Source: an uncultured Gemmatimonadota bacterium
GTDB taxonomy: Bacteria > JAAXHH01
Assembly: GCA_951812955.1 (NCBI GenBank)
Contig: OX638340.1
Location: forward strand, 2,272,001-2,336,000
Reading direction: 5' to 3'
DNA: 64,000 bases
Shown one piece after another: positions 1,894-63,146 of this stretch. A program made the translations under genes and the position numbers. The notes under the pieces were generated by a model. That model made no database searches and was not told where the DNA came from. It saw only the letters and a list, made by a program, of their open reading frames with translations. Numbering within the stretch: position 1 is the first letter of the stretch; each line of letters starts with the position of its first letter.

Positions 1894-2331
1894 TTAGATG
1901 AGGTACGTGCAGAAGAGTGCGCGCAATGGGGGTGGGGACCGGTCGGTATTCGATTCCGGAGAAATCCGTGAGACATGGACCGCCGGTTCAACCAGGTGTA
2001 ACCCCCGCAGCGGCGTCGATAGGACCAGCTGATCGGGTTGAACGGAAGCGGCTGGAAGCAGCGCACCCACCCCGGATTGCCGGTATGGCGCCGGATCGAC
2101 GCTGCAGCAGGACATGGCCAGCGTGCCCGTCGCGCATGTTTCCGTCGCGTGGCCCGTGGCGCATGTTTCCGGAGTCTTGGCCGTCGAGCAACAAGCGTGC
2201 TCGCTCCCGGACGAAGATGCGTCCGGCGACGAAGACTTTGCCATCATGCACACGCCGTCCGCTGCCGTGCCCGCCAGGGACGGAGACGACAAGGAGAGGA
2301 AAAGGATGAGAACGGTGAATCGCCTGATCAT
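1894..2331 (-). CDS. Small secreted Cys/His-rich protein, a possible periplasmic metal-binding protein.
   Basis: 145-aa ORF with a signal peptide (MIRRFTVLILFLSLSSPSLAG). It contains a Cys/His cluster HACCSTAKTPETCATGHATETCATGTLAMSCC with a repeated ETCATG motif. It lies next to the Cu-type efflux genes. The C-terminal third looks low-complexity, so the true stop and the reality of the gene are uncertain. Confidence 0.3.
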   Translation of the reverse strand: MIRRFTVLILFLSLSSPSLAGTAADGVCMMAKSSSPDASSSGSEHACCSTAKTPETCATGHATETCATGTLAMSCCSVDPAPYRQSGVGALLPAASVQPDQLVLSTPLRGLHLVEPAVHVSRISPESNTDRSPPPLRALFCTYLI

Positions 2332-4003: not shown

Positions 4004-4283
4004 TCCCAGATATGGCAGGCCAGTTCAATGCAGGGTGAAGCAGCCGGCGATCCGACTGTTGCCATTGCGCCCGAAGCCGGATCTGCGTGACCGGCGTCAG
4101 TTGGAACTACTTCGGCAATAAATAGTCCGCCAGAACATCGAGGTCGATTGGGGCGTCCCGCCCTAATTCTCCGACCCGCCCCTACATCCGACCCGCCCTT
4201 ACCACCGACCCGCCCACACCCCCGGCCCAACCGGGAGAGTACAGATTCCTACCATATCCTTGGCCATCCGGCACTGCTCGGCT

Positions 4284-4405
4284 GGCCGTCCATTTCCGCC
4301 GCCGAGACGGCTGTCCGCTTTCGCCCCAGTCGGCCGTCCATTTCCGCCGCCGAGACGGCTGTCCGCTTTCGCTCCAGTCGGCCGTCCGCTTTCGCCCCAG
4401 TCGGA
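4284..4405. repeat. Tandem direct repeat: a 48-bp unit present twice plus a truncated third copy. Upstream at 4160-4250 there are also three copies of a CCGACCCGCCC motif with a period of about 16 nt.
   Basis: Units at 4284-4331 and 4332-4379 differ by one mismatch. A partial third copy with an internal deletion lies at 4380-4405. The repeats sit in the intergenic region between the two MarR paralogs. Confidence 0.9.
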
Positions 4406-4698: not shown

Positions 4699-5181
4699 AT
4701 GAACGTGGAGAACGAATTCAGGCAGGACATCTCGAACCGCTACTTGAAGTCCGTGGAAGAAATCAACCGGATCATGTACAGCGGCCGTCTGCATGAGTGG
4801 CAGGGGATGGATCTATCGATTTCCCAGTTCAATACCCTTGTCATGCTGAAGCAGATGGGACCGATGCGCATGGGTATGATTTCCTACTATCTGAAGAACA
4901 CGCTTGCCGCCACCACATCGATCGTAGACCGTCTGGAGAACAAGGACCTGGTGATTCGGACCAAGGATCCCGAAGACAGAAGAGTGGTCATCTGCGAATT
5001 GACGGAACACGGGCAGAAAGCAACGGAGCGATTCTGGCGAGTCGCGCGGGAGGCGGCCTTGAGGGTAGCCAGCAAGTGGGACCTGAAGCAGTTCGAATCA
5101 GTGGTCGAGGCGCTGGAACTGGTCTTGCAGACCCATAAGGAGATCGTTCAGTCCGGCACATCTACAAAGCCTGCCGAATAA
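4699..5181 (+). CDS. MarR-family transcriptional regulator (paralog 2).
   Basis: 160 aa. ...DLSISQFNTLVMLKQMGPMRMGMISYYL...DPEDRRVVICELTEHGQKA...KWDLKQFESVVEALE is co-linear with the upstream MarR, including the C-terminal KWDFEQFESVVESLE motif. Confidence 0.8.
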   Translation: MNVENEFRQDISNRYLKSVEEINRIMYSGRLHEWQGMDLSISQFNTLVMLKQMGPMRMGMISYYLKNTLAATTSIVDRLENKDLVIRTKDPEDRRVVICELTEHGQKATERFWRVAREAALRVASKWDLKQFESVVEALELVLQTHKEIVQSGTSTKPAE

Positions 5182-5223
5182 CCCACGCAACAATCTACTA
5201 AGCCTGCCAAATAACCACTGACA

Positions 5224-9370: not shown

Positions 9371-9542
9371 GCTCGATCTCCCTTTCTATGCTGTTTTTGC
9401 CCTGCCATTTACAACTATGCATAATACCGGGCACGCGTCCCGGCGTCAAACGATTACGGTCTATCTGCGACTGCCTCTTCCCCTTCCCATCCGGTTTCGC
9501 CAAGCGTCAGTCCGCCGGCCACACCCCGCGCTTCGAGCAATT

Positions 9543-9636
9543 CCTGCCTCAGTTCAGATTCGCGTCCCGGGTCGAAACGGTCACGCCGTCCTGCCTCAGT
9601 TCAGATTCGCGTCCCGGGTCGAAACGGTCACGCCGC
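9543..9636. repeat. Perfect tandem duplication of a 47-bp unit that contains the lon stop codon and last 13 codons.
   Basis: Copy 1 is at 9543-9589 and copy 2 at 9590-9636, with one terminal mismatch. The lon stop codon (minus strand, 9596-9598) lies in copy 2, so copy 1 is a duplicate lying downstream of the gene. Confidence 0.9.
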
Positions 9637-12049: not shown

Positions 12050-12830
12050 GTCTTACCTCGCTTTCCCTGCCCTTGTGCCGCGTCCTCGGGCGTCCTCAAG
12101 AGGTGGCCGTCGCGAGACTCGGTTAGCCCTCGACCGTCAGTGAACGTCGCCGGGCCTGTTTCCATTCGCATGGCCATGGGAAGCGCCTCGCGGCTGCTTG
12201 ATTCATTATACGCACCAACCGGCCAATACGCTTCATTTGGCCTGGATTTCTACCGTACTACAGCAACATAGGGTGCAAACTCCATGCCACGATGATTCCG
12301 TGTCGACGACTTGATGATTCCGTGCCTCCTTCACGATGCTTCTGGGCCGACGGCATGGTAAATTCGCGCCACGCCAGGATTCTATTCGCGTATATGTGCC
12401 AATTTGGCATATCAGGTCGCACAAACTGCCATTTTAGCATGTGGCTTACTACAGAATCTCACACTATTTGGTCGGCAACTTCATCCCTCCGCTCGAATCC
12501 GTGTATGCCACGGCCTTCGCATAGCTATTCCGAACCGCGCCGGAGGTTTTTCTGCCCAGACCGTACTGCGCCTGTGTGATCTGCTGTCCGGACCGCGCTG
12601 CGCCAGTGTAATTTGCTACCCGGACTGCGATACGCCTTGTGTGTTCTACTTCCATCGAAACAGGTTGACAATTCGACGGTTCGGGTTACCATGTCGAGAA
12701 ATGATCGGCCTGCGTGTCCGTACTTAAACAGAGCGGTCTGTTCAGCCTGTTCCGGGGCAATCACGCGCCTGTTTTCGACGGAAACAGCCGCGACATTTCT
12801 CTGTCTACTGTCTCCATACGAGGAATACCC

Positions 12831-13298
12831 ATGAAACGTCCTTTCATTCGGATCTTGACGACCACGCTGTCATGCTTTCTTATCGCGGGATTGGCCATGG
12901 CGGGTTGCGGCGGCGAAGGCGGCGGAAGCCAGGACCATGCCGAAGAACCGGCCGAAAGCGAGGCGCCCGACCCGAACACCGAGGCGCGCCAGGAGTACAT
13001 GAGAGAGATCGCGCAGCTCTGCGAAGGGATCGCCCTGGCGATCGAGGAAGGATCCGTGGGGACGATCGGCGCCGACGTGTCGAATCTCAAGGGGGTCATG
13101 GAGGAAGTGTCTACGATGCCTCCGCGATACGATTCTTCGAGATTCGGGTTCTACGCCTCCGACTTCCAGATACGCGCCGACACGCTCATCGCAGCTGCGG
13201 AGACCGGTTCGGCCATCGAGGCCGACTCCGCGATGCAAGCCCTCGCGATCACCTGCGGCGTTTGCCATTACAACTGCAAGTTCCCGGCCGATCCGTAA
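12831..13298 (+). CDS. Lipoprotein c-type cytochrome, cytochrome c-prime / class II cytochrome c-like, with a C-terminal CxxCH.
   Basis: MKRPFIRILTTTLSCFLIAGLAMAGCGGEG... has a lipobox. The roughly 150-aa length, Ala/Glu-rich helical body and heme-binding motif (ITCGVCHYNC) 10 residues from the C-terminus match the four-helix-bundle class II cytochromes. A GAGGA ribosome-binding site lies upstream. Confidence 0.5.
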   Translation: MKRPFIRILTTTLSCFLIAGLAMAGCGGEGGGSQDHAEEPAESEAPDPNTEARQEYMREIAQLCEGIALAIEEGSVGTIGADVSNLKGVMEEVSTMPPRYDSSRFGFYASDFQIRADTLIAAAETGSAIEADSAMQALAITCGVCHYNCKFPADP

Positions 13299-13360
13299 TT
13301 CGCGGTTAGTTCCCGGCCGACCCGTAAATATCCGGCAAGTTCCCGGCCGATCCGTAATTC
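13278..13360. repeat. Three tandem copies (period about 30 nt) of AAGTTCCCGGCCGATCCGTAATTC. This is the last 6 codons plus stop of the cytochrome gene repeated twice downstream.
   Basis: Copies lie at 13278-13301 (includes the real TAA stop at 13296-13298), 13307-13330 (two mismatches) and 13337-13360 (identical to copy 1). Confidence 0.85.
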
Positions 13361-13376
13361 CCGCCAAGGAGGAACC

Positions 13377-18578: not shown

Positions 18579-20246
18579 TCAATCGACCTCGTCCGGATGG
18601 TCCCCTTCCACAATCCGCTCCGCCCGGTGGGTCTTTCCATCCTGGAGAAAGAGGAAATGGTCCACGTTTCCCATCTCGTCCCGGACGAAGGTGATCCGGG
18701 CGTCCTCTACTTCCAGGTAGAAGTCCCCTGAAGATTCGAGGATCAGTTCGCTTCGGGGCTGGCCGGGGGGCTGGCCGTAGAGCTTTCCGTCGCTGTAGGT
18801 GATGTCCACGGTAAACTCGGGGGAGAACGTGTAGGTTCCGGTGCATGCCTCGTAGGCGTCCTCGCTCAGGCGTACGGTCTTCATTGGGGGCGGCGCCAGG
18901 GGATTCCGGGCGCTCAGCAGGTGGAAGCCGATGTCCTCGACGTTGGCCGAGCTGTTGGACAGGACCACGACGCCCTTTCGCCACGCCTTGAGGAAGGCGG
19001 CGAATGCGTAGAACCCGTTGGTCCGGCCGGTGAGCCAGTGGATTTCTCGGCCTTGTTCGTCCTGGCGCACCTTCCAGCCCAGCGCGGTCCGGACGCCCTC
19101 TTCGTCAGTCGGTTCCCTGGCCACGATGAGGCTGTCGAAGGACGCGTGGTAGCGGGTCGAATCGTCTTCGGTGAAGTCTTCCGGCAACGCGTAGATGATA
19201 CCCATGTTGGCCGACACCAGGGTCATCATGTCGTGGAGATTGGACCGCAGCCCCGTGCCGCCCACGAGGGTCGTATCGGACCAGGCGTGCACGGGGCGGC
19301 GGGCTTCGTCGTGTCCGGTCGCCAGATACGTCCGCATGGACTGCGAAGGCGCGTTGGCCGTGTTGGCCAGCTTGATAGGATCGCCGAGCATCTCCCGGAC
19401 CAGGTCGTCGTATGATTCGCCGGTAGCCCGTTCCAATACGTGTCCCAGGAGTCCCATTCCGAGATCTGAATAGGCATAGGGGGCGTCCGTCGAGTAGCGG
19501 TCTTCCGTCTCGAAGGGATCGTCTCCTACCGGATCCTGTCCTTCCGGATCATCTCTCTCCAAAACGTTGTAACCAAACTGGGCCCCAAGCCCGTCGCGCT
19601 GCGCGTCCGTGTACCCGGCGAGGTATTCGTACAGCAACTCCACCGAATATCCCTTCAACGGATCGTCCGGATCGTCCGAAACCAGGTTGTCCGGCACGCG
19701 GGGCAGTCCCGAGGTGTGGGTGGCGAGGTGCTCAATCAGGATGGGGCGTCCGGCGGGTGTCGCCGGCACGGTCACCGTATCCGGGAGATAGACGGACACC
19801 CGGTCGGTCAGGTTCAGGTCGCCCCGCTGGACCAGGAGGGACAGCATGGCCGTCGTATACAGGCTGCTCAACTGGCCGATCTCGAAGACCGTCATGGCGC
19901 TCGCGCGCCGTATCGTGCCGCGGTTAAACGTGCCGTGGGCGTAGACGTACCGGTTGATGCCTCGGATGATCCCGGCGACGATGCCCACCGTCTGGCCGTA
20001 TTCATCGACGCGTTCGCGAAGCACGCGCTGTACGGGGTCCTCTTCCTCGACCTCTTCCGCACCGGAGCTTCCCGCGCTGCTGGGCGTATTGCTCCTCGCG
20101 CCCTGCGCATAGGCCGAGTCCTGCGCATAGGTCGTGCCCTGCGCATATGCCGAGCCCAGCGCGCGCGCCGGTGTGGACACGGCGAGCGTATAACAGATGC
20201 CGAAACAACACAACCACATGAGAAAACGGCCCGTGAATGACCGCAT
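18579..20246 (-). CDS. Secreted serine hydrolase of the beta-lactamase / transpeptidase superfamily, with a C-terminal accessory domain.
   Basis: 555 aa with a signal peptide. Residues about 100-430 resemble class C beta-lactamase-like esterases (...GTIRRASAMTVFEIGQLSSLYT...HLATHTSGL...). In the expected SxxK position the Lys appears to be replaced (SSLY). The N-terminus carries three in-frame 18-nt tandem repeats (SAYAQ GTTYAQ DSAYAQ). Confidence 0.65.
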   Translation of the reverse strand: MRSFTGRFLMWLCCFGICYTLAVSTPARALGSAYAQGTTYAQDSAYAQGARSNTPSSAGSSGAEEVEEEDPVQRVLRERVDEYGQTVGIVAGIIRGINRYVYAHGTFNRGTIRRASAMTVFEIGQLSSLYTTAMLSLLVQRGDLNLTDRVSVYLPDTVTVPATPAGRPILIEHLATHTSGLPRVPDNLVSDDPDDPLKGYSVELLYEYLAGYTDAQRDGLGAQFGYNVLERDDPEGQDPVGDDPFETEDRYSTDAPYAYSDLGMGLLGHVLERATGESYDDLVREMLGDPIKLANTANAPSQSMRTYLATGHDEARRPVHAWSDTTLVGGTGLRSNLHDMMTLVSANMGIIYALPEDFTEDDSTRYHASFDSLIVAREPTDEEGVRTALGWKVRQDEQGREIHWLTGRTNGFYAFAAFLKAWRKGVVVLSNSSANVEDIGFHLLSARNPLAPPPMKTVRLSEDAYEACTGTYTFSPEFTVDITYSDGKLYGQPPGQPRSELILESSGDFYLEVEDARITFVRDEMGNVDHFLFLQDGKTHRAERIVEGDHPDEVD

Positions 20247-20270: not shown

Positions 20271-21086
20271 TTAGTGCCGCGGTACCAGCACTTCGTTGGC
20301 GCTGTCCAGCCGGACGGGTTTCGCGTAGTGATACACGTTGACGCCCTCGGCGACCGGCGTGGGCACCCGGACGATGAACTCCACCCAGTCAGGTGTATTA
20401 AACGCGGCGAAGGCCAGTTCGATCCCTTCCATCATGTCTTCCGGGTCGCGGGTCAGGTCCGGCAGCAGTACCGGGCCCGTGTCCGGCTGGTAGATCCAGT
20501 CCCGCTCGTTGGCATTGATCGTCTTGACCGGGTATTCGAGCACCGCGGCGTACCGGTCGTTCCCGATGGTCGTCCGGGCGTTCAGGGGGACGTTGCCGAG
20601 GACGGCCTCGACGATGGTCCGCGGCGTCTCCAGAAGGCGGCCGTCCACGCGGGACAGGTCGATCCGGACGTCGTCGAAGGTCTCCGCGATGGCGACGATC
20701 TGCCGCTCGGGCTGCTCTCCCAGGGAGGGCGGGTAGAGCGTGGCGCCCCGGTTCGCCACCTCGTAGGTCTTGATGGCCATGAAGGTGTCCGACGAGAAGA
20801 TCGGCTTGAAGTCCGCGCTGGGGATGTGCCAGATATCCCGCTCCACCCCGACCTGTTCGGTCTTGCAACTCACCCCCAGGACGTATTCTTCCCGGAACCC
20901 GCCGTCCTTCCCGGTCACGGTCAGGGTGGCCTCTATGGGAATGCGGGCGTTATTCAGGGAATAGGGCACCTTCTGGGTCACGGTCTTCGGCGGTTTCTTC
21001 TCGGAATCCACGCGAAAGGTAAAATAGGAACGCGCGAAATCGATGGTCTGCATGGGCATGGGCACTCCTGAAAGGTTCTGCAGCAA
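20271..21086 (-). CDS. Hypothetical cytoplasmic protein. No family was recognised.
   Basis: 271-aa ORF with several alternative Met starts (M1/M10/M12) and no signal peptide. Its codon usage is typical for the genome. It lies 25 nt upstream of the hydrolase gene on the same strand. Confidence 0.45.
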   Translation of the reverse strand: MLQNLSGVPMPMQTIDFARSYFTFRVDSEKKPPKTVTQKVPYSLNNARIPIEATLTVTGKDGGFREEYVLGVSCKTEQVGVERDIWHIPSADFKPIFSSDTFMAIKTYEVANRGATLYPPSLGEQPERQIVAIAETFDDVRIDLSRVDGRLLETPRTIVEAVLGNVPLNARTTIGNDRYAAVLEYPVKTINANERDWIYQPDTGPVLLPDLTRDPEDMMEGIELAFAAFNTPDWVEFIVRVPTPVAEGVNVYHYAKPVRLDSANEVLVPRH

Positions 21087-21091
21087 CCGGC

Positions 21092-21266
21092 TATGGACTA
21101 CTTGATCCAGATGCAGCCTACAAATGGTTTTTCAACATCTGATTATGGACTACTTGACGCGACTGATTATGGACTACTTGTGATTATGTACCTTCTGTTC
21201 CAGACGCAGATTAAAATGGGTCCTGGACACGGTTATTCATACCTTCTGGACACGGTTATTCATACC
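21092..21266. repeat. Intergenic short direct repeats. TATGGACTACTTG occurs three times, and a 22-bp unit occurs twice; the second copy contains the stop codon of FtsX-1.
   Basis: The three-copy motif lies at about 21092, 21145 and 21169. The 22-bp copies ggacacggttattcatacct lie at 21221-21243 and 21245-21266. The minus-strand TAA of FtsX-1 is at 21256-21258. Confidence 0.85.
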
Positions 21267-23718
21267 TCAATGCATGCACAGGGTCGGACAGCGTGGTCTT
21301 CAACGTATGATACATCACAGTCAGCAGAGCGATCATCGTGACGAAAGCCCCTACGAGACCGAAGATGCCAAGATTGACCACGGCGTGATACGCAAACTCC
21401 TGAATCCACGTCATCATCATCGTGTACGCAATTGGCCAGGCTATGGCGTTTGCGATGAGTGACAAAATGACCACCTCGCGGCATTGCAGGGTTAACAGAC
21501 TCAGAAAAGTCGCTCCCAGTGCCTTTCGTATCCCCACTTCCCTGATGCGTTTTCTTGTCGTGTATGAAACAAGGCCGGTCAGGCCCAGGCAAGCGATAAG
21601 AACCGCTATCAGCGAAAAACTGCCGAGTATCGTAATCAGTCTGTTCTCTTCGTTATAGAACTGTGCGGTGTCTTCATCCAGGAAGTAGTAGGCAAATGCG
21701 AAGTCCGGATTGATGTCCCTCCATGTCTCCTCGATGAATGCCAGGGTTTCCTCGTAGTTCTCCGAACCGAGTTTAATGGACACATTCCAGAATTCATCTG
21801 ATGCGAGCATGGCGAGCGGTTCGATTTCCGACCTTAAGCTATTGTAATGAAAGTCATTTACTACCCCGATTACCGTTCTGAAGGATTCAGCGGCCTCCCC
21901 GGACGCTGACATGCCGCGGGGCGCAATCCACCTTATCCTTTCTCCCACGGCTCCTTCAGCAGAATCCCAGCCGGCTTTCGCGGCCGCGCGCTCGTTGAGA
22001 ATGATTGAACGCCTGTCTTCCGCCGCCAGGGTACTCGAGAAAAAACGTCCTGCTTTCATGGTCATGCCAAGCGTACGGAGGTAGTCGGCGTCGACCCAAA
22101 AGGTCCTTACCTGGATTTGCCCTCCGTCGTCTGCGGTTATCGGCCGTATGGTCGTTTGTAGCGGCGGTCTTCCCGGGGGCATGTCGGACCCGGAAACACT
22201 GAGTACGCTATGGTGTTCAAGCAGTCTTTCTTTCAGGGCCGAGAATGTATTTACGACAGGAGTGAATGTGAGCGGAATGACGACTATCCGTTGGTTGTCA
22301 TAGCCCAGGTCCTTGTCCCGGATGTAATCTATTTGCTGATACACGATGCAGGTAGCGATTATCAGAACAGTCGATATGGTGAATTGAAACACGACCAGCG
22401 TTTGACGCAGCGACGCCTTTTTTATCCCTCTGCTAATCCCGCTTTTAAGTACGTCAATCGGTTTGTAAGATGAAAGCAGGAGGGCGGGGTAAATGCCGGA
22501 GACAAGTCCAACCATCAGCGAAGTGCCGAGTAACGCCGGTATCAACTCGGAGATATCATAACTGATCTGGTCTGCTGACGCTGTCATCATACTGCTGAAC
22601 ACGGGAAGCAGGAACTCGATCATTCCCCAAGCGATAGGCAAGGCGATGATGGCGATAAACACAGACTCTCCGATATGCTGTGCCATCAGTTGGGCTCGTT
22701 GCGCTCCCAGCGTTTTACGCAGTCCTATTTCACCTGCACGGCCGCTCGAGTACGCGGTAGCGAGATTGATGAAGTTCACACAGGCAATCATCAGTATCAG
22801 TACCGCTACGGCGCCGTAGAGGAAAACAGTTGAAATACTGCCGTTTGGTTCCAACTCACCCATGCGACTAGAGTAAAGATGAATGGATGTCAGGGGTTGC
22901 AGAGTGAGGTCAAAAGTAATTTGCTCACTTTCAAACCGGGGATTCACGTGCCTGGAAACAAACTCGGGAAACTTGGTGGTCAATTCACCGGGGATGGAAG
23001 CCGGTGTGAGCAACAAGTAAACATGGCTGCGGTTCCAAAGATCCCAGGTGTACCGCTCATCCGGCCTAAAACTGACCGATGATTCACGTTGATGTGCGAG
23101 AAAATCATAATTCATGTGCGAGTTTGGTGGCAGGTCTCGCATTACCCCCACGATACGATAGTCCCAGGTATCTTCGGCGCGAATCGTTTTACCTATGGGA
23201 TCGGCATCCTTGAAGTACTTCAGCGCCATGGATTCGGACAAAACGACCGTAAAGGCGTCTTTCAGCGCGGTTTCGGGGTTTCCTTGAACGAATTCGACCG
23301 AAAAAACATCGAAAAACGTGGAGTCCGTGTGATAGAACCCCTTTTCATAGAATCGATTTTCGCCGTGGGCTATCATGTAGGAAGAACCCGGTTTCAGAAC
23401 GGTCACCGACGCTTGAATTTCCGGGAACTCCTCTTTCAGGACGCTGACCAGGGGGGTCAAGGCAGCAGCGGTTTCCGTGGTGCTGTTCGGACTGTGTATG
23501 TCCATCGCCACGCGGTATATTCTGTCTGAATTCACATTGAACCGATCGAAACTCAGTTCGAACCGCATGTAGAGCATAATCATCACGAAACATGTTACGC
23601 CAATTGTAAGACCCACTACATTGATGGATACATAAGCCTTATTGTTCCACAGGTGGCGAACAGTAGTCCTTAAAATGTTACTGATCAGCGACGCAGGAAG
23701 AAACCCGGTAGCGGCCAT
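21256..23718 (-). CDS. ABC-transporter permease with two FtsX domains and MacB-like periplasmic domains. No ATPase partner is present (FtsX-1).
   Basis: About 820 aa from MAATGFLPASLISNILRTTVRHLWNNKAYVSINVVGLTIGVTCFVMI.... It has the N-terminal transmembrane helix, large periplasmic domains and two 4-TM FtsX blocks. It is a paralog of the genes at 32238 and 37170. Confidence 0.85.
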   Translation of the reverse strand: MAATGFLPASLISNILRTTVRHLWNNKAYVSINVVGLTIGVTCFVMIMLYMRFELSFDRFNVNSDRIYRVAMDIHSPNSTTETAAALTPLVSVLKEEFPEIQASVTVLKPGSSYMIAHGENRFYEKGFYHTDSTFFDVFSVEFVQGNPETALKDAFTVVLSESMALKYFKDADPIGKTIRAEDTWDYRIVGVMRDLPPNSHMNYDFLAHQRESSVSFRPDERYTWDLWNRSHVYLLLTPASIPGELTTKFPEFVSRHVNPRFESEQITFDLTLQPLTSIHLYSSRMGELEPNGSISTVFLYGAVAVLILMIACVNFINLATAYSSGRAGEIGLRKTLGAQRAQLMAQHIGESVFIAIIALPIAWGMIEFLLPVFSSMMTASADQISYDISELIPALLGTSLMVGLVSGIYPALLLSSYKPIDVLKSGISRGIKKASLRQTLVVFQFTISTVLIIATCIVYQQIDYIRDKDLGYDNQRIVVIPLTFTPVVNTFSALKERLLEHHSVLSVSGSDMPPGRPPLQTTIRPITADDGGQIQVRTFWVDADYLRTLGMTMKAGRFFSSTLAAEDRRSIILNERAAAKAGWDSAEGAVGERIRWIAPRGMSASGEAAESFRTVIGVVNDFHYNSLRSEIEPLAMLASDEFWNVSIKLGSENYEETLAFIEETWRDINPDFAFAYYFLDEDTAQFYNEENRLITILGSFSLIAVLIACLGLTGLVSYTTRKRIREVGIRKALGATFLSLLTLQCREVVILSLIANAIAWPIAYTMMMTWIQEFAYHAVVNLGIFGLVGAFVTMIALLTVMYHTLKTTLSDPVHALRYE

Positions 23719-23852
23719 GGCGGATCTCCAGCAGCTTAAAACGGGATTTCGTACAGGAAGCAGAAGCCACCCCAACCTTATGCGGACAATATAGTGTTCC
23801 CCTCGACTTTTCGGTACGACATTACAGGCGTAACGCGGCAACCAGGAGCACC

Positions 23853-25697
23853 ATGTCAAGCGAACTGACCAGGACCTACCGCCCGTTCTCGGACTCCCGC
23901 CCCTACACCCGCTGGTGGTGGTTCTACGATGACATCAGGGCGGTGGACATCCGGACGCAGTTGCGATGGGTGCGGGACCAGGGATTCGGTGGCGTGGAGA
24001 TCGCCTTCATGTATCCGCAGCCAGGGTCCGGTGAAGGGCCCCACTGGCTGAGCGAGGCGTGGACCGACTTGGTCGCCTTCGCCAAGGAAGAGGCGGACCG
24101 GCTCGGGATCGGATGCGACTTCACCTTCAGCACGTCCTGGCCCTTCGGTGGGTCGATCGTTCCCGAGGAGGACGCGGGACAGGTATTCGGCGGGCCGGCG
24201 ACCCAGCGCCTGGAAAAGTCGTGGGAACTGTCCTATTTCGGCCGCGGCCGGATCCTGAACCACCTGGACACGGGCGCGTTCAGCCGTTACGCCGAGCAGG
24301 TAGGTGGCGCACTGAAACCCGCCCTGCGCGGTACGACCTCGGGAATGTTCTCCGATTCGTGGGAGGTTTTCCCGGAGGGCCTCTGGAGCGCCCACCTGGA
24401 CCCCGTCTTCAGGGATCGTTTCGGGTACGACCTGGAACCGTTCAAGGCATGTATCGACCAGCATCCCGACGTGCGGTACGATTACCGGAAGATCCTGTCG
24501 GATGCGGCGATCGAGGGCTTCTTCAGGCCCTATGCCGAGGTTTGCCACCGCCTCGGCGCCGTGAGCCGCGTGCAGTGTCACGGGGCGCCGACGGACCTGC
24601 TGGCCGCTTTCGCGCTCGTGGACGTCCCGGAATCGGAGGCCCTGCTGTTCGAGACGTTCTTCTCGGCCATACCGGGTTCGGCCGCGGCCCTGGGCTCTCG
24701 GCCCGTGGTGACCTGCGAGACGTTCACCTGTATCTACGGCTACGCGCCATGGCCCGCGCCGTCACCCCATCACGGCGAGGAGAAGGTGGAGGACATGAAG
24801 CTCATGGCGGACGCGGTGTTCGCCAACGGCGTCAACCACATCGTCTGGCACGGCATGCCCTACAACGCGCCGGGCGGGAACAACACCTTCTACGCGACCA
24901 CGCACGTCGGTCCGGGCAGCGGATTCGCCGGCCGGCTTCCGGCCTTCAACGCCTACATGGCCGAGGCCTCCGATTTCGTCAAGCAGGGCAGAACGTATAC
25001 GGACGTGGCCGTGTACCTCCCACTGGAAGACCACTGGATGTGCCATACGCTGCCCGAGGAACGGCGCGGACCGGCCGCGAACTATTACTGGGAACTGCAA
25101 ACCGTCGAACGGCCCGGTGCCTTGCTTGGGTACCATCCCCTCTGGATATCGACGCCTTTTCTGGAGGAAGCGGAGGTGGAGGACGGCCGCGTTCGATATG
25201 GAGAGGCAGTCTTTTCCGTATTGTATGTGGACGTGGAATGGCTGGACGGCGAAGCCCTGTCGGCCCTGCAGCGGCTGGCAAGGGAAGGTGCGCATATCGT
25301 CATTCCGCGCAGGCCTGCCGCGCCCGGCCACCGTCCGCCTGCGGATTACGAGGATCGCCTGAAACAACTGATGAGCCAACCAGCGGTTACCACTGATCCG
25401 GGTGAGGCGCTGCGGCATCCTCCCCTCGTGAGCGGCCTGGACACGCCGGAATTCTGGTGCAGGGAGGTCGACGGCGACTACCACCTATACTTCGCCCATC
25501 CCGATACGAAGCGCATCCGGTACCCCATGGCCTACGAGGGCTGGCGTTCCACGGGCCTGGTCGAGCGGGAAGTAGTCCTGCATGTCAACAGCCGGGAGCG
25601 GACGGTGCGCCTGGCCTTCGAGCCCGAAGATGCCATGCTGGTCAGGGTATCGGCCACGGGCGCGGTGGACGTGGAACCGGGGCGTGTTGATGAGTGA
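23853..25697 (+). CDS. Putative glycoside hydrolase. The family is uncertain, possibly GH106-like.
   Basis: 614 aa. The N-terminal motif RPYTRWWWFYDD and TIM-barrel-like acid-residue spacing point to a glycoside hydrolase. No signal peptide is present. Assignment is from memory of GH N-terminal motifs only. Confidence 0.35.
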   Translation: MSSELTRTYRPFSDSRPYTRWWWFYDDIRAVDIRTQLRWVRDQGFGGVEIAFMYPQPGSGEGPHWLSEAWTDLVAFAKEEADRLGIGCDFTFSTSWPFGGSIVPEEDAGQVFGGPATQRLEKSWELSYFGRGRILNHLDTGAFSRYAEQVGGALKPALRGTTSGMFSDSWEVFPEGLWSAHLDPVFRDRFGYDLEPFKACIDQHPDVRYDYRKILSDAAIEGFFRPYAEVCHRLGAVSRVQCHGAPTDLLAAFALVDVPESEALLFETFFSAIPGSAAALGSRPVVTCETFTCIYGYAPWPAPSPHHGEEKVEDMKLMADAVFANGVNHIVWHGMPYNAPGGNNTFYATTHVGPGSGFAGRLPAFNAYMAEASDFVKQGRTYTDVAVYLPLEDHWMCHTLPEERRGPAANYYWELQTVERPGALLGYHPLWISTPFLEEAEVEDGRVRYGEAVFSVLYVDVEWLDGEALSALQRLAREGAHIVIPRRPAAPGHRPPADYEDRLKQLMSQPAVTTDPGEALRHPPLVSGLDTPEFWCREVDGDYHLYFAHPDTKRIRYPMAYEGWRSTGLVEREVVLHVNSRERTVRLAFEPEDAMLVRVSATGAVDVEPGRVDE

Positions 25698-29575: not shown

Positions 29576-29630
29576 GGTACGGTATGGCCTGCAAGGTACG
29601 GTGTAGCCCGCATGGTACGATATGGCCTGC
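29576..29630. repeat. Three tandem 19-bp direct repeats (GGTACGGTATGGCCTGC-like) about 20-75 nt upstream of the TPR-1 start.
   Basis: Copies lie at 29576-29592, 29595-29611 and 29614-29630, with 2-3 mismatches between them. Confidence 0.8.
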
Positions 29631-34610: not shown

Positions 34611-34686
34611 GATCGTTTTGCCTCCTGTCGCTTACGAGCTGTAAGCCGGAAAACGTTCCTGAGGAAACACGATCTTGGAATGGCAA

Positions 34687-34719: not shown

Positions 34720-34779
34720 GAAAAGTTGCATGTTGGTAACTATTGCGATGCCGGAACTTACGTAGTGCATTCCCGACTG

Positions 34780-36381
34780 TCAGTCAACGACAAACGTGTT
34801 TTCACTACGGCGAAAACTCCTATCATCGCCAAACGAAACATCATAAACCAGTCTATACTCACCGGCGACTTCCGGATCGTATGGGCAAGCGTCGAATTCC
34901 ACCCGTGTGGCCTCGATGTCTTCCCATGTACTGCCCATATCGTCGCTTCGCTGCCATACGGAGTAATGGACCGTCATGGGGATACCTAACGGCTGAGTTG
35001 GGTAGTTGTTTAGTTCAGCACGAAAGAGTGAACTTGCACAGTATTCTATAGTTATAGGAGTATATCCTGGTCCCGTGAATATCAACTTACCGGGCTCGAC
35101 CTTCCAACCTTCCCACGGGACATAGACTATCTCGTCGACTGGCTCGTCGACGCCTTCGCCGCCATCCCCGCCATCCCCGCCTTCACCACCTTCCCCTTCA
35201 GTCGGAACCATGACCGTGATACTCACCATGGCCGACACGTCGCCGGACGCGGCCGTGACTACGGCCATGCCGTTGCCCACCGCTTCTACCAATCCATCCT
35301 CGTCCACGGTGATCACGTTTTCGTCACCGCTCGTCCACGTGACGGCCGGTTCGGCAATGGCATTGTCGTTCCCGTCGCTGACGGAAACCATGAGTTGCAG
35401 GGTCTGTTCGATCTCGGTCAGCGTGGTGGCATCGGGTGCGACCTCGATGCTGATGCCGGCCGGAACCTGGGCGACGGTGATCGACGCAGTCCCCATAGCG
35501 TCTCCGGCCTGTGCCGTGATCTCCGCCATGCCGTTGTCCACCGCGGTCACAAGCCCGTTCTCGTCCACGGTGGCCACGGCGTCATCGGCGCTTGACCAGG
35601 TCACCATCACGTCCTCCATCGCGTTTTCGTGCTGGTCCAGCACGACGGCCGCGAGTTCCACGGTGTCGCCGATCGCTTCCAGCGTGTGCGCAGCGGGCTC
35701 GATCGTCAGGCTCGTCGGCACGGATACGGATACCGTGATGGACGCACTGGCGGACAGGCTGCCGGATGTGGCCGTGATCTCAGCCATCCCGTTACTCACC
35801 GCCGTTACAAGGCCCGCCCCGCTCACGGTCGCCACGGCGTCGTCGCCGCTCGACCAGGTGATGGACTGGCCGGACATGATGTTGTTCCGCTGATCCCGCA
35901 CCGTAGCCGACAACTGTACCGTTTCCCCGATCGCCTTCAGCGTATGGGACGTCGGTGCGACCGTGATCCGGGTCGGCACCGGCTCGGCCACCGTGATGTT
36001 CGCAGTGCCCGTCGCGTTGCCGGACTGCGCCCTTATTTGCGCGGCGCCGTTGGCCACGGCCGTCACCAGGCCATTTCCGCTGACAGTCGCCACCGCGGTA
36101 TTGCTGCTCGACCAAGTCACCGCCTGGCCGGTCATCGGATTGTTGTTCTGGTCCCTCACCATGGCCATCAGTTGCACGGTCGCGCCAATCGTCGCCAGCG
36201 TGTGCGAAGACGGCGTGACAGAAATGCTCGTCGCAACGGGCGCAGGCGGTGGAGCAGGCGGGGTCGGTGTGGACGGCTCGGGACTCGTCGGGCTGCTGTC
36301 CCCGCCACCGCATCCCGCCAGAAAAACCAGGTACAAGGATGCCGTGATCTTGGCGAACACGCGACTGTATGGACCAAACAC
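34780..36381 (-). CDS. Surface lipoprotein with four Big_2 (bacterial Ig-like group 2) domains, a Gly/Glu/Asp linker and an unclassified roughly 125-aa Cys-containing C-terminal domain (Big2-1).
   Basis: GTG start with an AAGGAG ribosome-binding site. It begins MFGPYSRVFAKITASLYLVFLAGCGGGDSS (lipobox), followed by a Pro/Thr linker. Four repeats carry the Big_2 signature (..TVQL.A.V.DQ.NN.M.GQ..TWSS....VATV...GLVTAV.NG.A.I.A..). The C-terminal domain reads VPWEG...CASSL...VHYSVWQRSDDMGSTWEDIE...DACPY.PEVAGEYRLV. Confidence 0.8.
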   Translation of the reverse strand: MFGPYSRVFAKITASLYLVFLAGCGGGDSSPTSPEPSTPTPPAPPPAPVATSISVTPSSHTLATIGATVQLMAMVRDQNNNPMTGQAVTWSSSNTAVATVSGNGLVTAVANGAAQIRAQSGNATGTANITVAEPVPTRITVAPTSHTLKAIGETVQLSATVRDQRNNIMSGQSITWSSGDDAVATVSGAGLVTAVSNGMAEITATSGSLSASASITVSVSVPTSLTIEPAAHTLEAIGDTVELAAVVLDQHENAMEDVMVTWSSADDAVATVDENGLVTAVDNGMAEITAQAGDAMGTASITVAQVPAGISIEVAPDATTLTEIEQTLQLMVSVSDGNDNAIAEPAVTWTSGDENVITVDEDGLVEAVGNGMAVVTAASGDVSAMVSITVMVPTEGEGGEGGDGGDGGEGVDEPVDEIVYVPWEGWKVEPGKLIFTGPGYTPITIEYCASSLFRAELNNYPTQPLGIPMTVHYSVWQRSDDMGSTWEDIEATRVEFDACPYDPEVAGEYRLVYDVSFGDDRSFRRSENTFVVD

Positions 36382-44128: not shown

Positions 44129-44154
44129 GAGTTATCCTGCCCGCCGCCGGGACA

Positions 44155-46539: not shown

Positions 46540-47516
46540 TGGGATTCCGTGGTCCGCCTGGTCGGCCCGGACGACTTGGACTGCGTGTTACCTTCGGCCT
46601 GCTCGGCCTGCTCGGCTTGTTCGGCCCGTGCCATCACCGCTTCCGCCAGCCGGCGGCCCAGTTCCGGTCCTTCTTCCGGCAGTCCCCGCAGGCCGTGGCG
46701 CGCGATCCAGCTGCCGTCATCGGCGGCCAGCACGGCGTCCAGCTCCAGGCAATCGTCCCGGATTCTCCCCCAGGCGCCAACCGGGGTATGGCAACCGCCG
46801 CCTATACGATAGAGAAAAGACCGCTCCGCCATCACCGCCTGCCTGGCCGGGAGGTCCTCGATTCGCCTTGCCGCTTCCAAGGTGGGATGATCGTCCTTAC
46901 GGGTTTCAATCGCGAGCGCCGCCTGGCCGACGGCCGGCATGCAGACCTCCGGCGGCAATATCTCGGATATGCGGTCATTCCAGCCCAGTCGCTGCAATCC
47001 CGCCACGGCCAGCACGATGGCGTCCGGACCGTCCGGTTCTTCCAGTTTCTTCAACCTGGTGTCTATATTCCCTCGAATGCCCGAAAAGCGCAGATCCGGC
47101 CGGTAATGTTGAAGCTGCGAGCGCCGCCTCGGACTCCCCGTGGCGACCAGGGCGCCCGATGGGAGCTCGTCGAGTCTGGCGCTGTCGCGGCTGATCAGGG
47201 CGTCCCGCACGTCCACGCGCTCCGGCACCGCGGCGATCGCCAATCCATCGGGAAGGGACGTGGGCAGGTCCTTGAGACTGTGTACGGCCATGTCGATCTC
47301 TCCCGAGACCAGGGCCCGTTCCAGTTCCTTGACGAAGACGCCCTCGCCGCCGAAGGTGTCCAGGGAAGCGCTTCTGTCAGAATCGCCCTTCGTCTTGATG
47401 ACGCGCACCTGTACGGACAGGCCGCCCTGGCCCGCTTCCAGGTCCTTGGCCACCGAATGGGCCTGGACGAGGGCCAGCCTGCTGCCGCGGGTGCCTATGA
47501 TCAATGAAGAAGCCAT
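46536..47516 (-). CDS. hemC: Hydroxymethylbilane synthase (porphobilinogen deaminase).
   Basis: MASSLIIGTRGSRLALVQAHSV...LKGNIDTRL... The C-terminus carries an AEQAEQAEQAE repeat from 9-nt tandem repeats. Confidence 0.9.
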   Translation of the reverse strand: MASSLIIGTRGSRLALVQAHSVAKDLEAGQGGLSVQVRVIKTKGDSDRSASLDTFGGEGVFVKELERALVSGEIDMAVHSLKDLPTSLPDGLAIAAVPERVDVRDALISRDSARLDELPSGALVATGSPRRRSQLQHYRPDLRFSGIRGNIDTRLKKLEEPDGPDAIVLAVAGLQRLGWNDRISEILPPEVCMPAVGQAALAIETRKDDHPTLEAARRIEDLPARQAVMAERSFLYRIGGGCHTPVGAWGRIRDDCLELDAVLAADDGSWIARHGLRGLPEEGPELGRRLAEAVMARAEQAEQAEQAEGNTQSKSSGPTRRTTESQ

Positions 47517-51425: not shown

Positions 51426-51491
51426 AACGCGTTTTTCTCCTGTCTATAAAACCGTAACTCATGGGTCTTCAGTGCAACGGGTCCACGCCGG

Positions 51492-51545
51492 ATGGCGCCT
51501 TTCGTTCGCCGCGCCAGATGGCGCCTTTCGTTCGCCGCGCCCCGT
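51492..51545. repeat. Two tandem 27-bp units, each able to form a GGCGC-N12-GCGCC hairpin. They lie in the leader of the aminotransferase gene and the divergent era promoter region.
   Basis: gatggcgcctttcgttcgccgcgcca is repeated directly. Further GCCGTAAC(A/T)G and CGTGACAGG direct motifs lie at 51590-51720. Confidence 0.75.
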
Positions 51546-51862: not shown

Positions 51863-52792
51863 ATGGCACCCACTGAACATATGGAAAGCACGGACAGCGC
51901 CGGATCGCATCGCGCAGGCTTCGTCGCCCTGGTCGGGAAACCGAATGTGGGCAAGTCCACCCTGATGAACGCGTTCCTTCAGCACCGGCTTTCCATCGTC
52001 ACCCCCAGGCCCCAGACCACCCGTCAACGGGTGCTTGGCATTCTGACGAAGGATACCTGCCAGGTCCTGATCCTGGATACGCCCGGGTTGCTCGAACCCG
52101 GCTACCGGCTCCAGGAATACATGCTGCAGTCCGCGGTCCATACGCTGCACGACTCCGATGCGGCCGTGGCCATCGTCGACGCCACCCGTTTCGAACGCGA
52201 TCTCGACGACCGCGTCGTCGGGTTCCTCGAGCATAGCCGCGGACCGGTGATCCTGGCCATAAACAAAATCGACAGGGCATCCAGAACTTCCCTGCTTCCC
52301 ATGATCGACCGGGCCGCAGGCCGTTTCCCCTTTGCCGAGATCGTACCCGTGTCCGCCCTCAAGGGAGACGGTCTCGACCCTTTGCTCTCCGCCGTCATCC
52401 GCCTGCTCCCATCCGGGCCGGCACTGTATCCCGCCGACATGCTCACCGATCAACCGGAACGGTTCTTCGTGGGTGAAATCATCCGGGAGCACCTGTTTCT
52501 GGCCCTGCACGAGGAACTGCCCTACGCATCGGCCGTGATCGTGGAGGACTTCACGGACCGGCCCAACGGCACAGCCTTCATACAGGCGGGTATCATTATC
52601 GAGCGGACATCCCAGAAGGGCATCATCATCGGCAGGAACGGCCGCATGCTGAAGCGCATCGGCACGTCCGCGAGGAAGGCAATCGTCGAATTCCTCGACC
52701 GTCCCGTCTATCTCGACCTGCGGGTCAAGGTCAGGCCGTCCTGGCGTAAGAAAGAACAGGATCTGAAGCGTCTGGGCTACACCACGAGGTGA
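51863..52792 (+). CDS. era: GTPase Era.
   Basis: The G1-G4 motifs are present (GKPNVGKST, DTPG, NKID) and a C-terminal KH domain follows. The start is taken at the internal Met (MAPTEH...). Confidence 0.9.
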   Translation: MAPTEHMESTDSAGSHRAGFVALVGKPNVGKSTLMNAFLQHRLSIVTPRPQTTRQRVLGILTKDTCQVLILDTPGLLEPGYRLQEYMLQSAVHTLHDSDAAVAIVDATRFERDLDDRVVGFLEHSRGPVILAINKIDRASRTSLLPMIDRAAGRFPFAEIVPVSALKGDGLDPLLSAVIRLLPSGPALYPADMLTDQPERFFVGEIIREHLFLALHEELPYASAVIVEDFTDRPNGTAFIQAGIIIERTSQKGIIIGRNGRMLKRIGTSARKAIVEFLDRPVYLDLRVKVRPSWRKKEQDLKRLGYTTR

Positions 52793-52860
52793 GCGTCGCC
52801 GAGGCGAGCATCTGGGCTACACCGCGAGGTGAGTGTCGCCGAGGTGAGCGTCGCCGCAGG
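52772..52860. repeat. Tandem duplication of a roughly 40-bp unit comprising the last 7 codons and stop of era.
   Basis: Copy 1 at 52772-52811 contains the real TGA at 52790-52792. Copy 2, ctgggctacaccgcgaggtgagtgtcgccgaggtgagcgtcgcc..., starts at 52812. Confidence 0.85.
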
Positions 52861-54109: not shown

Positions 54110-55012
54110 ATGAAACCCCTTTGCCGGCTCCGGTTTGCCGCAAAGAACCTGTCCCGGTACCTGTCGCTCCTGTCGCTCAGACAGGCCACCGCGTCGATCT
54201 CCGTCCTGCTGCTGACGACCCTGGGTTGCGGAAGCGCCTTCCAGAATATCAACGTCCTCAGCGAGTCGGATGAAATAGCGCTCGGCCGCGAGTTTTCGAG
54301 AGAAATCGAAAGAGAGATCAAACTGTTCACGGACCCGGAGGTGGTCCGCTACGTCGACGAACTGGGGCAGACCCTCGTCCGGCATTCCAAACGGTCCAAT
54401 TTACAATACTACATAAAAGTCGTGGATACGGATGAAGTCAACGCCTTTGCCCTTCCCGGCGGCTTTCTCTATGTCAATCGGGGCCTCATCTCCTTAGCGA
54501 ACACCGAATCGGAACTGGCGGGGGTGATCTCCCACGAAATCGGGCACGTGGTGGGGCGTCACGGCGCCAAGGCCCTGACCCGGCAACTCGGGCTGGAGAT
54601 CGTGCTGGGCATGATATCGGGAAGGAACTCCACCGGCGTCCAGCGCGTCGCTTCGCAACTGGCGGGAATCGGCGGCATCCTCTCCATGTTGCACTACTCC
54701 CGGGAAGCGGAACGGGAAGCGGACGCCCTAGCGGTCGAGAACCTCCGGGAGGCCGGCTACGATCCCGATGGCGTCTCGGCGTTCTTCGAGAAGCTCCTGG
54801 AAATCAACGACCGTGAACCCGGCGCGCTGGCCCTGCTGTTCTCGACTCATCCACCGAGCAGGGAACGCATCGATCAAACCAGGAAACAGATCGCCGGACT
54901 ACCGGTCCTGGACGGACTGATTACCGATTCGGAACGGTTTCATCAGATCAAGAGCCGGCTGCCGCCGCTTAAGAAGAACCCGCTGGACAATGAAGTACCA
55001 ACTGGACAATAA
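54110..55012 (+). CDS. M48-family zinc metallopeptidase lipoprotein.
   Basis: It has a lipobox (LTTLGCGS). HEIGHVVGRH is the HExxH motif, and a downstream Glu (REAEREAD) is present. Confidence 0.8.
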   Translation: MKPLCRLRFAAKNLSRYLSLLSLRQATASISVLLLTTLGCGSAFQNINVLSESDEIALGREFSREIEREIKLFTDPEVVRYVDELGQTLVRHSKRSNLQYYIKVVDTDEVNAFALPGGFLYVNRGLISLANTESELAGVISHEIGHVVGRHGAKALTRQLGLEIVLGMISGRNSTGVQRVASQLAGIGGILSMLHYSREAEREADALAVENLREAGYDPDGVSAFFEKLLEINDREPGALALLFSTHPPSRERIDQTRKQIAGLPVLDGLITDSERFHQIKSRLPPLKKNPLDNEVPTGQ

Positions 55013-61911: not shown

Positions 61912-62048
61912 CAGGATGCCCGTCCCCGAGGGCGTCTACGGCCGGGACGGGGCGCAACCAATCGGAACCTGGAACAGGATGCAGATCAGACAGGAGCGGT
62001 GACATGGCAGCAGGCAACACGGTAGAAGGCAACACGGCAGAAGGCAAC

Positions 62049-63146
62049 ATGACAACAGGCAACTTACGTATCGGGCTCATCGGGCTCGGAACGGTGTGCG
62101 AATACGTGCATTACCCTGGGTTCTCCCGTATTCCGGGCGTGGAAATCGCCGGGCTGTGCGAGGTGGACGGGGATCTGCTGGCCCGCAGACAGGCACAGTG
62201 GGGCGTCGCGGATGGTTTCACGGACGTGGACCGGTTCCTGGCCACCGTCAAACCGGACGCCGTGGCCGTCGCCGTGCCGAACGTGTATCACCGCGATATC
62301 GTGATTAAATCCGTCGAGGCGGGTTGTCACGTGCTCTGTGAAAAACCCATCGGCATGACCGTAGCGGAGACCGTGGATATGTACGTATCCGCCAGAAACG
62401 CAGGCGTTCGCCACATGACCGCCTTTACCTACCGGTTCGTACCGGGCATGCGCTACCTGAAGCACCTGGTCGACGAAGGGCAACTCGGCGAGATACGCCA
62501 CGCGCGCTTCCAGCGCCTCCAGGACTGGGGCGAACATTCCGTGGGATGGCGCCAGTACCGGCGCATGGCCGCCACGGGGGAACTCGGGGACATGGGCATA
62601 CACCGCATCGACTTCGCCGAGGACCTGCTCGGTCCGATCAAGTCGGTGTGCGCGTCACTGAAGCAGGTCATTCCCCGGGACCGGACGGAGGACGGAAGGC
62701 CCTGCGAACCGCAGGACGTGGAGGACTGGGTCGCCTGGATCGCCGAATTCGAATCGGGGACCACGGGCGTATTCGAGATGGGAAAACTGACCAAGGGCCA
62801 CGGGCCCGGGGGTGATCACGACATCTGCGAGTTGAACGGGACCATCGGATCCGCCGCCTACCGGCTTCACACGCCCTGTGCCATCCTGGCCGGTCCGCGC
62901 CGCGCCAGATACCGGAGACGCCGTGTGCCTGCGGGCTTCCTCACCGTGCCCGGTTCTCCCCGCGACCCGAAAGAAGGCGATCCTGCACAGACTTTTCGTT
63001 TCGACCAGGCCTGGGAGTTCGTCTGTGCCATCCGCGAGGAACGGGACTGCGTGCCTTCCTTCTACCACGGCATGCGCGCACAGGTCGTCGCGGAGGCTAT
63101 CCTCGAGGCGGCCGAGTCCCGGAGGTGGGTGGACGTGCCGGCTTGA
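62049..63146 (+). CDS. Gfo/Idh/MocA-family NAD(P)-dependent oxidoreductase.
   Basis: MTTGNLRIGLIGLGTVCEYVHYPGF... is the Rossmann start, and ...EKPIGMTVAE... follows. Four tandem 15-nt repeats (61997-62056) precede and overlap the start. The alternative upstream start at 62004 would add GNTVEGNTAEGN. Confidence 0.8.
   Translation: MTTGNLRIGLIGLGTVCEYVHYPGFSRIPGVEIAGLCEVDGDLLARRQAQWGVADGFTDVDRFLATVKPDAVAVAVPNVYHRDIVIKSVEAGCHVLCEKPIGMTVAETVDMYVSARNAGVRHMTAFTYRFVPGMRYLKHLVDEGQLGEIRHARFQRLQDWGEHSVGWRQYRRMAATGELGDMGIHRIDFAEDLLGPIKSVCASLKQVIPRDRTEDGRPCEPQDVEDWVAWIAEFESGTTGVFEMGKLTKGHGPGGDHDICELNGTIGSAAYRLHTPCAILAGPRRARYRRRRVPAGFLTVPGSPRDPKEGDPAQTFRFDQAWEFVCAIREERDCVPSFYHGMRAQVVAEAILEAAESRRWVDVPA

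Follow-up and report, generated by a model that had tools for sequence, protein, structure and literature searches.

Repeated gene tails in a bacterial clade with a high load of short tandem duplications

The stretch of DNA analysed here (64,000 nt from an uncultured bacterium, hereafter the window) contains five genes, MarR-2, lon, cytochrome c', FtsX-1 and era, whose last 3-13 codons and stop codon are repeated just 3' of the gene. We consider it likely that short tandem duplications occur at a high flux throughout the lineage and that these tail copies are their neutral remnants; they look like a mutational signature, not a functional device. Tandem duplications are in clear excess in the window, they recur and are polymorphic among its relatives, and those lying inside genes have passed a reading-frame filter. 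The unusual part is the load carried by the whole clade; a special device acting at stop codons is not indicated.

Results

Stop-codon tail copies in the window

Repeats were located in the 64,000-nt window with TRF, by reading of the coding strand and by a local direct-repeat search. The features found at or next to gene 3' ends are the following.

5160-5183 and 5193-5216, plus strand: MarR-2 tail with TAA, 24-nt copies, 2 mismatches
9434..9458, minus strand: older lon-tail copy, 76% identical, present in all relatives
9542..9635, minus strand: exact tandem duplication at the lon 3' end, 47 nt x2.0, 100% identical (TRF)
13276..13368, plus strand: cytochrome c' tail with TAA, three copies, ~30-nt units, 81% matches (TRF)
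21223..21267, minus strand: FtsX-1 tail, 23-nt unit x2, 22/23 exact
52767..52856, plus strand: era tail with TGA, 40-nt unit x2.1, 90% matches, 15-nt sub-repeats
54973..55010, plus strand: 3' end of the M48 peptidase gene, 19-nt unit x2, inside the last codons
59465..59560, plus strand: degenerate AACGAA/CCGCG-type repeats after the SDR stop, stop not included

The lon unit of 47 nt consists of 12 codons, the TGA and 7 nt, with positions 9589-9635 being part of the gene and 9542-9588 the downstream duplicate. The older lon-tail copy overlaps a -35-like TTGACG of the htrA-like gene. At cytochrome c', copies 1 and 3 are identical across 26 nt, which indicates that the triplet arose by a nested re-duplication of 59 nt. 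The two MarR-2 copies are separated by a 9-nt spacer (33-nt spacing); they were missed by TRF and are plain in the sequence and in the direct-repeat search. The FtsX-1 unit comprises 3 codons, the TAA and 10 nt, and occurs as 22-nt exact copies with one base between them.

An earlier sequence-only reading of this DNA had proposed that at least six genes have their last codons and stop codon duplicated downstream. The five genes listed above bear this out. A sixth, the M48 peptidase gene, was overlooked by that reading and is added here as a near-stop case: its final 6 codons lie in the second copy, whose frame is shifted because 19 nt is not a multiple of three, and the stop codon arises at the copy boundary. 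The C-terminus of this protein has thus been rewritten by the 19-nt duplication. The degenerate repeats reported after the SDR gene do exist, as a weak array (TRF 59524-59557, score 43), but they lie past the stop codon and do not straddle it.

Pfam backs the identification of Lon, MarR, MacB/FtsX, Era, SDR, hemC, Gfo/Idh/MocA, Big_2 and a beta-lactamase-family protein. The cytochrome c' match is sub-threshold (22.5 bits, for a cut-off of 26.5), and the putative protein carries a CXXCH motif (CGVCH) near its C-terminus.

Other tandem repeats in the window

Tandem repeats are found well beyond gene 3' ends, both inside genes and between them. All of the in-frame coding repeats reported earlier (in a hydrolase, hemC, Gfo/Idh/MocA and Big2-1) were recovered by TRF.

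2120..2190, unstranded: intergenic, 27 nt x2.7 (TRF and direct-repeat search)
4170-4215, unstranded: intergenic, 17 nt x2.7 (TRF and direct-repeat search)
4284-4404, unstranded: intergenic, 48 nt x2.2 (98%), with 23-25-nt sub-units (TRF and direct-repeat search)
12288..12625, unstranded: intergenic, 22 nt x3 and 32 nt x2.3, upstream of cytochrome c'
20100..20162, minus strand: in-frame, 18 nt x3.5, N-terminal part of the beta-lactamase-family protein (TRF, Pfam)
21071..21191, unstranded: degenerate 24-52-nt repeats (CTGATTATGGACTACTTG), between FtsX-1 and the gene at 20271-21086
29576..29630, minus strand: 19 nt x2.9, 5' leader of a TPR gene (likely start ATG 29554)
35151..35196, minus strand: in-frame, 9 nt x5, Big2-1 (TRF, Pfam)
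46594..46626, minus strand: in-frame, 9 nt x3.7, near the hemC C-terminus (TRF, Pfam)
51486..51541, unstranded: intergenic, 26 nt x2.2, divergent region upstream of era
62002..62063, plus strand: 15 nt x3-4, in-frame units with AACATG, straddling the Gfo/Idh/MocA start

By class, the window therefore contains five stop-straddling repeats, one near-stop repeat (M48 peptidase), one start-straddling repeat (62002-62063) and about ten purely intergenic ones (2120, 4170, 4284, 12288, 12552, 21071-21191, 29576, 44829, 51486 and 59524). Unit length varies continuously across loci from 9 to 103 nt, most copies abut, and copy identity spans 100% down to ~65-75% (TRF, direct-repeat search). The G+C content of the window is 61%.

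The start ATG of Gfo/Idh/MocA used by L081 and L082 (ATGCGCATCGGG) reads TTACGTATCGGG in the window (62040-62075); judging from this difference, the gene in the window probably starts at an ATG within an upstream copy of the 15-nt repeat, which would add about 20 residues. In addition, 3-4 degenerate CTGATTATGGACTACTTG copies lie upstream of the unannotated gene at 20271-21086, and could be either decayed duplications or operator-like sites.

Comparison with chance expectation and with other bacteria

After merging, and counting loci with a period of at least 12 and a score of at least 50, the window contains 20 tandem-repeat loci, while 30 block shuffles of it contained 0.57 on average and never more than 4. 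The resulting density of 3.1 loci per 10 kb is about 4.5 times the value pooled over 77 unrelated lon-containing loci (0.69).

For every called gene, the final 50 nt were compared with the 150 nt that follow it, a match being retained when it included the stop codon and scored at least 12. Such a copy follows 5 of the 43 gene ends in the window, compared with 3 of 1449 in 113 unrelated loci (p = 8e-7), which are mostly metagenome assemblies, many of them with MEGAHIT- or SPAdes-style contig names. Stop-containing copies mark about 10% of the gene ends of the clade and about 0.2% elsewhere.

The predicted enrichment at stop codons is thus strong relative to other bacteria, but it is modest relative to neutral placement in the window and the clade loci. 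Given the gene map, random placement of the observed unit lengths predicts that, of the placements that are not internal to genes, 78% should be intergenic, 10% at stops and 10% at starts. Five of the 16 non-internal repeats of the window are at stops (p = 0.02, rising to 0.15 if the true intergenic fraction is smaller than gene calls suggest). Pooled over the clade, stops take about 10 of 30 (p = 0.0006-0.03), and stop-straddling events outnumber start-straddling ones by 10 to 3 (p = 0.046). The stop-codon excess over other non-coding placement, about 3-fold, is real but modest. It may result from start-side events being more harmful, together with a slower decay of the selected in-gene copy.

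Relatives and clade pattern

Relatives of the window were obtained by a Lon scan of genomes, which gave the syntenic loci L001 and L002 (85-89% nucleotide identity), by an Era scan of metagenomes, which gave L081 and L082 (94-95% identity) and L083 and L084 (~80%), and by protein look-ups, which gave L162 (96% in lon), L161, L165, long-read L163, L164, L166 and the more distant L167. In the lon tree, the window, L162, L161, L002 and L165 form one clade, and L001, L163 and L164 form its sister clade.

Repeat load follows this division. The window's clade carries 2.4-4.5 tandem-repeat loci per 10 kb (the value of 2.4 being that of the short locus L162), compared with 0.9-1.8 in the sister clade and 2.2 in L166; the more distant relatives L003, L167, L085 and L086 have no tandem-repeat locus, and none of their 66 gene ends has a stop copy. 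Gene ends with a stop-containing copy number 9 of 98 in the window's clade and 1 of 75 in the sister clade, L166 and L169 included. High-repeat loci are mostly short-read assemblies and low-repeat loci long-read ones, a confounding of clade with assembly type which is only partly broken by the long-read locus L169 and by diverged copies shared between assemblies.

Public labels of the clade conflict, being either Latescibacterota or Gemmatimonadetes. L081 (MKWU01004298.1) is an Illumina-only SPAdes assembly from a metagenome of the sponge Aplysina aerophoba; as it is 94-95% identical to the window, the window's organism is probably sponge-associated or near a sponge symbiont. In the closest relative, L162 (3378-5830), lon is divided into two ORFs of 637 and 170 aa, through either an assembly frameshift or pseudogene formation.

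Histories of single sites

The comparison with close relatives suggested by the sequence-only reading reveals differences in both the presence and the number of copies (window versus L081, L082 and L162). The clearest case is lon, for which the relatives span 85-96% identity and the tail is single-copy in L162 (96% identical), L001, L002 and L163. The 83-nt segment downstream of the lon duplicate of the window is already present in L162, which has a single tail, so that the duplication in the window is recent: an exact 47-nt event without junction microhomology. The 83 nt are for the same reason excluded as part of that event. This segment (9459-9541, from the lon duplicate to the htrA-like promoter) is common to the window and L162 only, and no source for it was found in the window and about 160 loci. 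L161 has its own exact 44-nt lon-tail copy, ending in TGA and located 103 nt downstream, with a 59-nt spacer between the copies. A link between the lon tail and this L161 filler through a recurring CGTTTCGAYCSGGG motif was considered and dropped, the motif not being enriched. The lon-htrA spacer is different in every lineage.

The cytochrome c' tail is present as a single copy in L001, L163 and L164 and as the same three copies in L162 and the window, and it has undergone different, independent expansions in L161, L002, L165 and L166, always directly before the AAGGAGG site of the next (glyoxalase) gene. The era duplication is common to the window, L081 and L082, which differ by 15-nt units and substitutions, and is absent from L083 and L084; L081 and L082 possibly come from one project and are then not fully independent of each other.

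Other sites have also changed among these relatives. The M48 peptidase unit of 19 nt has two copies in the window and four in both L081 and L082, the region downstream of SDR is longer in the window by 10 and 18 nt than in L081 and L082, and the 15-nt units of Gfo/Idh/MocA differ in copy number among the three. L081 has three more units of the hemC 9-nt repeat, and it shares the repeat at 51486 with the window, with an additional 32-nt unit. The MarR-2 ortholog of L002 has a 3' end remodelled in a different manner. Private events include a 62-nt unit at the stop of a glyoxalase-family gene in L002 and, in L168, one of 33 nt at a CusB-like stop. The ATGA stop/start overlap of iPGM and ROK is parted in L161 by a 53-nt unit (x2.4). 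Finally, a 20-nt unit x3.2 is found at the mutS stop in the sister-clade locus L169, a long-read contig of 4.2 Mb.

In-frame expansions occur across the clade in protein linkers as well, namely of EPVD type in the C-terminal linker of Lon (P0003, P0009, P0013 and P0019; 817-838 aa) and of DGVDGA type in the MutS linker (L168 10001-12763; 920 versus 872 aa).

Rate, reading frame and junctions

Over 16.9 kb aligned at 95.4% identity, the window and L081 differ by 12 indels of at least 10 nt. At least seven of them pass an automated tandem test, and most of the others are, by inspection, repeat gains or losses. This test under-calls events whose gap length differs from the period (lon scores 0.35), so that the counts are lower bounds. 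Copy-number differences between the two sequences are located almost only at gene boundaries. By comparison, the sister-clade pair L163/L164 (92.5% identity, 22.2 kb) shows 8 indels of at least 10 nt, of which 3 are tandem-like. Tandem-like indels per substitution are thus roughly 3-6 times as frequent as in the sister-clade pair, the factor varying with the scoring of borderline events.

Units in genes are multiples of three (9, 12, 15, 18, 21, 24, 39 and 87 nt, the exceptions being weak TRF rows), whereas units outside genes mostly are not.

With a criterion of at least 4-5 nt for microhomology, junctions of clean events show 0-6 nt, other junctions being obscured by later mismatches. The values are 0 nt for lon, 3 nt for both a 23-nt event in L163 and a 17-nt event in L002, 4 nt for both a 19-nt event in L081 and the repeat at 51486, and a plausible 6 nt (CCCGGC) for cytochrome c'. 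These junctions fit low-homology template switching or slippage, and fill-in of staggered breaks may also be compatible with them. A one-base junction filler, considered as a signature of end joining, was discarded, as comparison with L081 identifies the odd base at 51486 as a later substitution.

Larger rearrangements and gene neighbourhood

The window also contains a tandem segmental duplication of ~5.4 kb (31970-42294, 95-99.5% identity). The duplicated block consists of a hemL 3' fragment, a Big_2 protein and a MacB/FtsX permease; its by-products are a truncated aminotransferase fragment (36464-37057) and a copy of FtsX that is now spread over two overlapping frames (37170-38900 and 37946-39541). 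Big2-2 has an internal tandem duplication of 528 nt (40076-40578 and 40604-41106). The hemL gene itself (41855-43144) is located beside a contiguous tetrapyrrole biosynthesis cluster (43160-50359) that comprises hemB, a hemD/cobA fusion, hemC, hemA, a sirohaem synthase-like gene and a cytochrome c assembly protein gene.

The FtsX-1 gene (region 21087-23859) has a G+C content of ~0.52, whereas the window averages 0.61. L001 and L002 lack it, and in these loci the divergent genes flanking the site are ~240 nt apart. From this arrangement, FtsX-1 would be either a lineage-specific insertion in the window or a loss in the relatives.

Discussion

A probable high flux of short tandem duplications

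The view that this genome acquires many small tandem duplications and keeps only those that are neutral or in-frame is supported by the excess, the rate and the frame rule described above. Under the explanation that we favour, duplications would start anywhere in the genome, most with units of 9-100 nt and occasionally as events of 0.5-5 kb, and those that shift the reading frame would be purged by purifying selection. Only units that are multiples of three would persist in genes, chiefly in linkers and termini, while any length could persist outside. A segment running from the last codons past the stop could be duplicated with the protein left unchanged, since translation ends at the first stop, and the second copy would then be free to decay. 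The copies themselves would have no function. As for the molecular route, replication slippage or template switching is probably responsible; the low junction microhomology of the cleanest recent events (0-4 nt) points to a possible contribution of end joining or fill-in.

Such a passive model requires added assumptions, because stop events exceed both neutral placement (~3-fold) and start events (10 versus 3). Moreover, the lon-htrA and cytochrome c'-glyoxalase spacers have expanded independently in several lineages and could be hotspots or targets of selection. Loss of mutS, which had been put forward as a possible cause, is not supported for the clade, because a full-length MutS is found in the high-repeat relative L165: its lon locus lies on a contig (JAPPBT010000065.1) that encodes a MutS of 920 aa comprising domains I-V as well as the C-terminal domain. 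Similar MutS proteins are encoded on contigs that correspond in length to those bearing Lon proteins of other members of the high-repeat clade. Separately, a role of the copies as terminators or RNA structures was rejected, the fold of the lon region having z = +1.4 and terminator-like sites not being enriched.

Alternative explanations

A first alternative is that mutational input is ordinary and that duplications are purged less efficiently, owing to small effective population size or weak deletion bias, perhaps in a host-associated bacterium. We regard it as unlikely. The sponge origin of L081 is in keeping with it, the truncated hemL fragment and the frameshifted FtsX copy of the 5.4-kb duplication suggest relaxed purging, and copies persist at many stages of decay. 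Nevertheless, exact events are absent from relatives that are 95-96% identical, which indicates ongoing input, and the excess of tandem-like indels per substitution is several-fold over the sister-clade pair; coding density, in addition, is still about 84% or more.

It is improbable that some of the duplications were selected, whether for uncoupling overlapping stop and start codons, for providing a promoter or RBS, or for supplying spacer or regulatory sequence. Three sites are suggestive in this respect: the old lon-tail copy, whose -35-like TTGACG is conserved, the L161 53-nt unit, which separates a stop and a start that would otherwise overlap, and the cytochrome c'-glyoxalase spacer, which grew independently in five lineages just upstream of AAGGAGG. 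However, the old lon copy is the sole conserved second copy. Elsewhere the presence, unit length and sequence of copies vary between close relatives and the copies decay, and convergent pairs (era/APH) and regions without a downstream gene have also been hit.

An artefact of assembly or polishing that duplicates short sequences, a possibility raised by the sequence-only reading, is refuted as a general cause, and we consider it very improbable overall. It could be suspected from the lon and FtsX-1 copies, which are exact and seen in this assembly only, and from the predominance of short-read assemblies among high-repeat loci. Against it, the era and cytochrome c' duplications recur in separate assemblies, where they differ by substitutions and in their units, many copies have diverged to 75-95% identity, the long-read contig L169 carries a stop-straddling triplet of a 20-nt unit, and the 113 control loci, produced by like assemblers, yielded just three stop copies.

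Equally implausible is a footprint of mobile DNA, in the form of a dispersed minisatellite (MIRU-like), of target- or att-site duplications or of diversity-generating retroelement repeats: copies do lie at gene 3' ends and between co-directional genes, and the L161 spacer does separate two exact lon-tail copies, but self-BLAST of the window revealed neither cross-locus similarity between units nor a MIRU/REP-like consensus shared between loci, lengths are not fixed and most copies adjoin directly, without an intervening element, a scan of roughly 50 ORFs of the window gave no reverse transcriptase, integrase or transposase domain, and the copy differences at era and cytochrome c' are not adenine-specific in alignments read by eye.

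Significance

The preferred reading, a high flux with neutral or in-frame survivors, can be carried one step further. Tentatively, the clade may possess an active, lineage-specific DNA transaction that yields tandem duplications of 15-100 nt with little or no microhomology and that is its chief source of new intergenic DNA. If so, candidate processes would be a slippage-prone replisome, or end joining with fill-in at staggered breaks. The process would separate genes that overlap and reshape C-termini as well as disordered linkers (Lon, MutS, M48 peptidase). Having marked ~10% of gene ends with stop-containing copies, it would be the equivalent, on a bacterial chromosome, of the Borg tandem repeats.

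If the pattern is genome-wide, this clade would constitute a natural record of how small tandem duplications make intergenic DNA, pull stop/start junctions apart and rewrite protein C-termini and linkers. Many of the events can be polarised against close relatives, and the relatively repeat-free sister clade offers a contrast for finding the replication or repair factor responsible. In practice, repeated gene tails are to be expected in these genomes, and pipelines for annotation and variant calling should not dismiss them as misassemblies.

Comparison with known systems

We found nothing specific in the literature on stop-codon-straddling duplications in bacteria, but several known systems share some of their properties. 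Bacterial VNTRs or minisatellites form by slipped-strand mispairing, and mycobacterial MIRUs are intergenic units of 40-100 bp in operons, with small ORFs that overlap the flanking stop and start codons. The arrays described here resemble both in their head-to-tail units of tens of nt, their position at gene boundaries and their copy-number polymorphism in close strains. They show the features expected of VNTRs, namely local head-to-tail copies, copy variation between relatives and conservation of frame in coding units. MIRUs, in contrast, constitute a dispersed family with a consensus, whereas each locus here has its own unit, derived from the local gene tail.

The filling-in of staggered breaks during end joining also produces tandem duplications, and these show hardly any microhomology or none, as in the repair of paired nicks in plants and in mycobacterial Ku/LigD repair of ends with 5' overhangs. 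By analogy, the blunt junctions observed here, and possibly the single extra base between the FtsX-1 copies, might be reminiscent of this process.

Microhomology-mediated tandem duplications have been described in fission yeast (PMC8639346). The case presented there is similar in that short tandem duplications are frequent, and some events in our data are likewise flanked by short repeats (CCCGGC at cytochrome c', 3-4 nt at several others); unlike that case, the cleanest recent event (lon, 47 nt) has 0 nt.

The nearest described phenomenon is that of the Borg elements of Methanoperedens, in which the propensity for tandem-repeat formation is a property of particular genomes and is almost lacking in related ones (PMC9879509). 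Borg repeats have independent origins and evolve fast; their units are divisible by three in ORFs and mostly not in intergenic regions, and those in ORFs create repeat or disordered protein segments (PMC9879509). Borg repeats are perfect, multi-copy (regions of at least 50 nt) and A-rich, and they are carried by an archaeal linear element, whereas the arrays reported here have mostly 2-3 copies of 65-100% identity, are G+C-rich and lie on a bacterial chromosome. The class of repeats that contain a stop codon is outside the main focus of the Borg paper (PMC9879509). What the two systems have in common is a genome-specific abundance of tandem repeats, an independent origin at each locus and genic units divisible by three.
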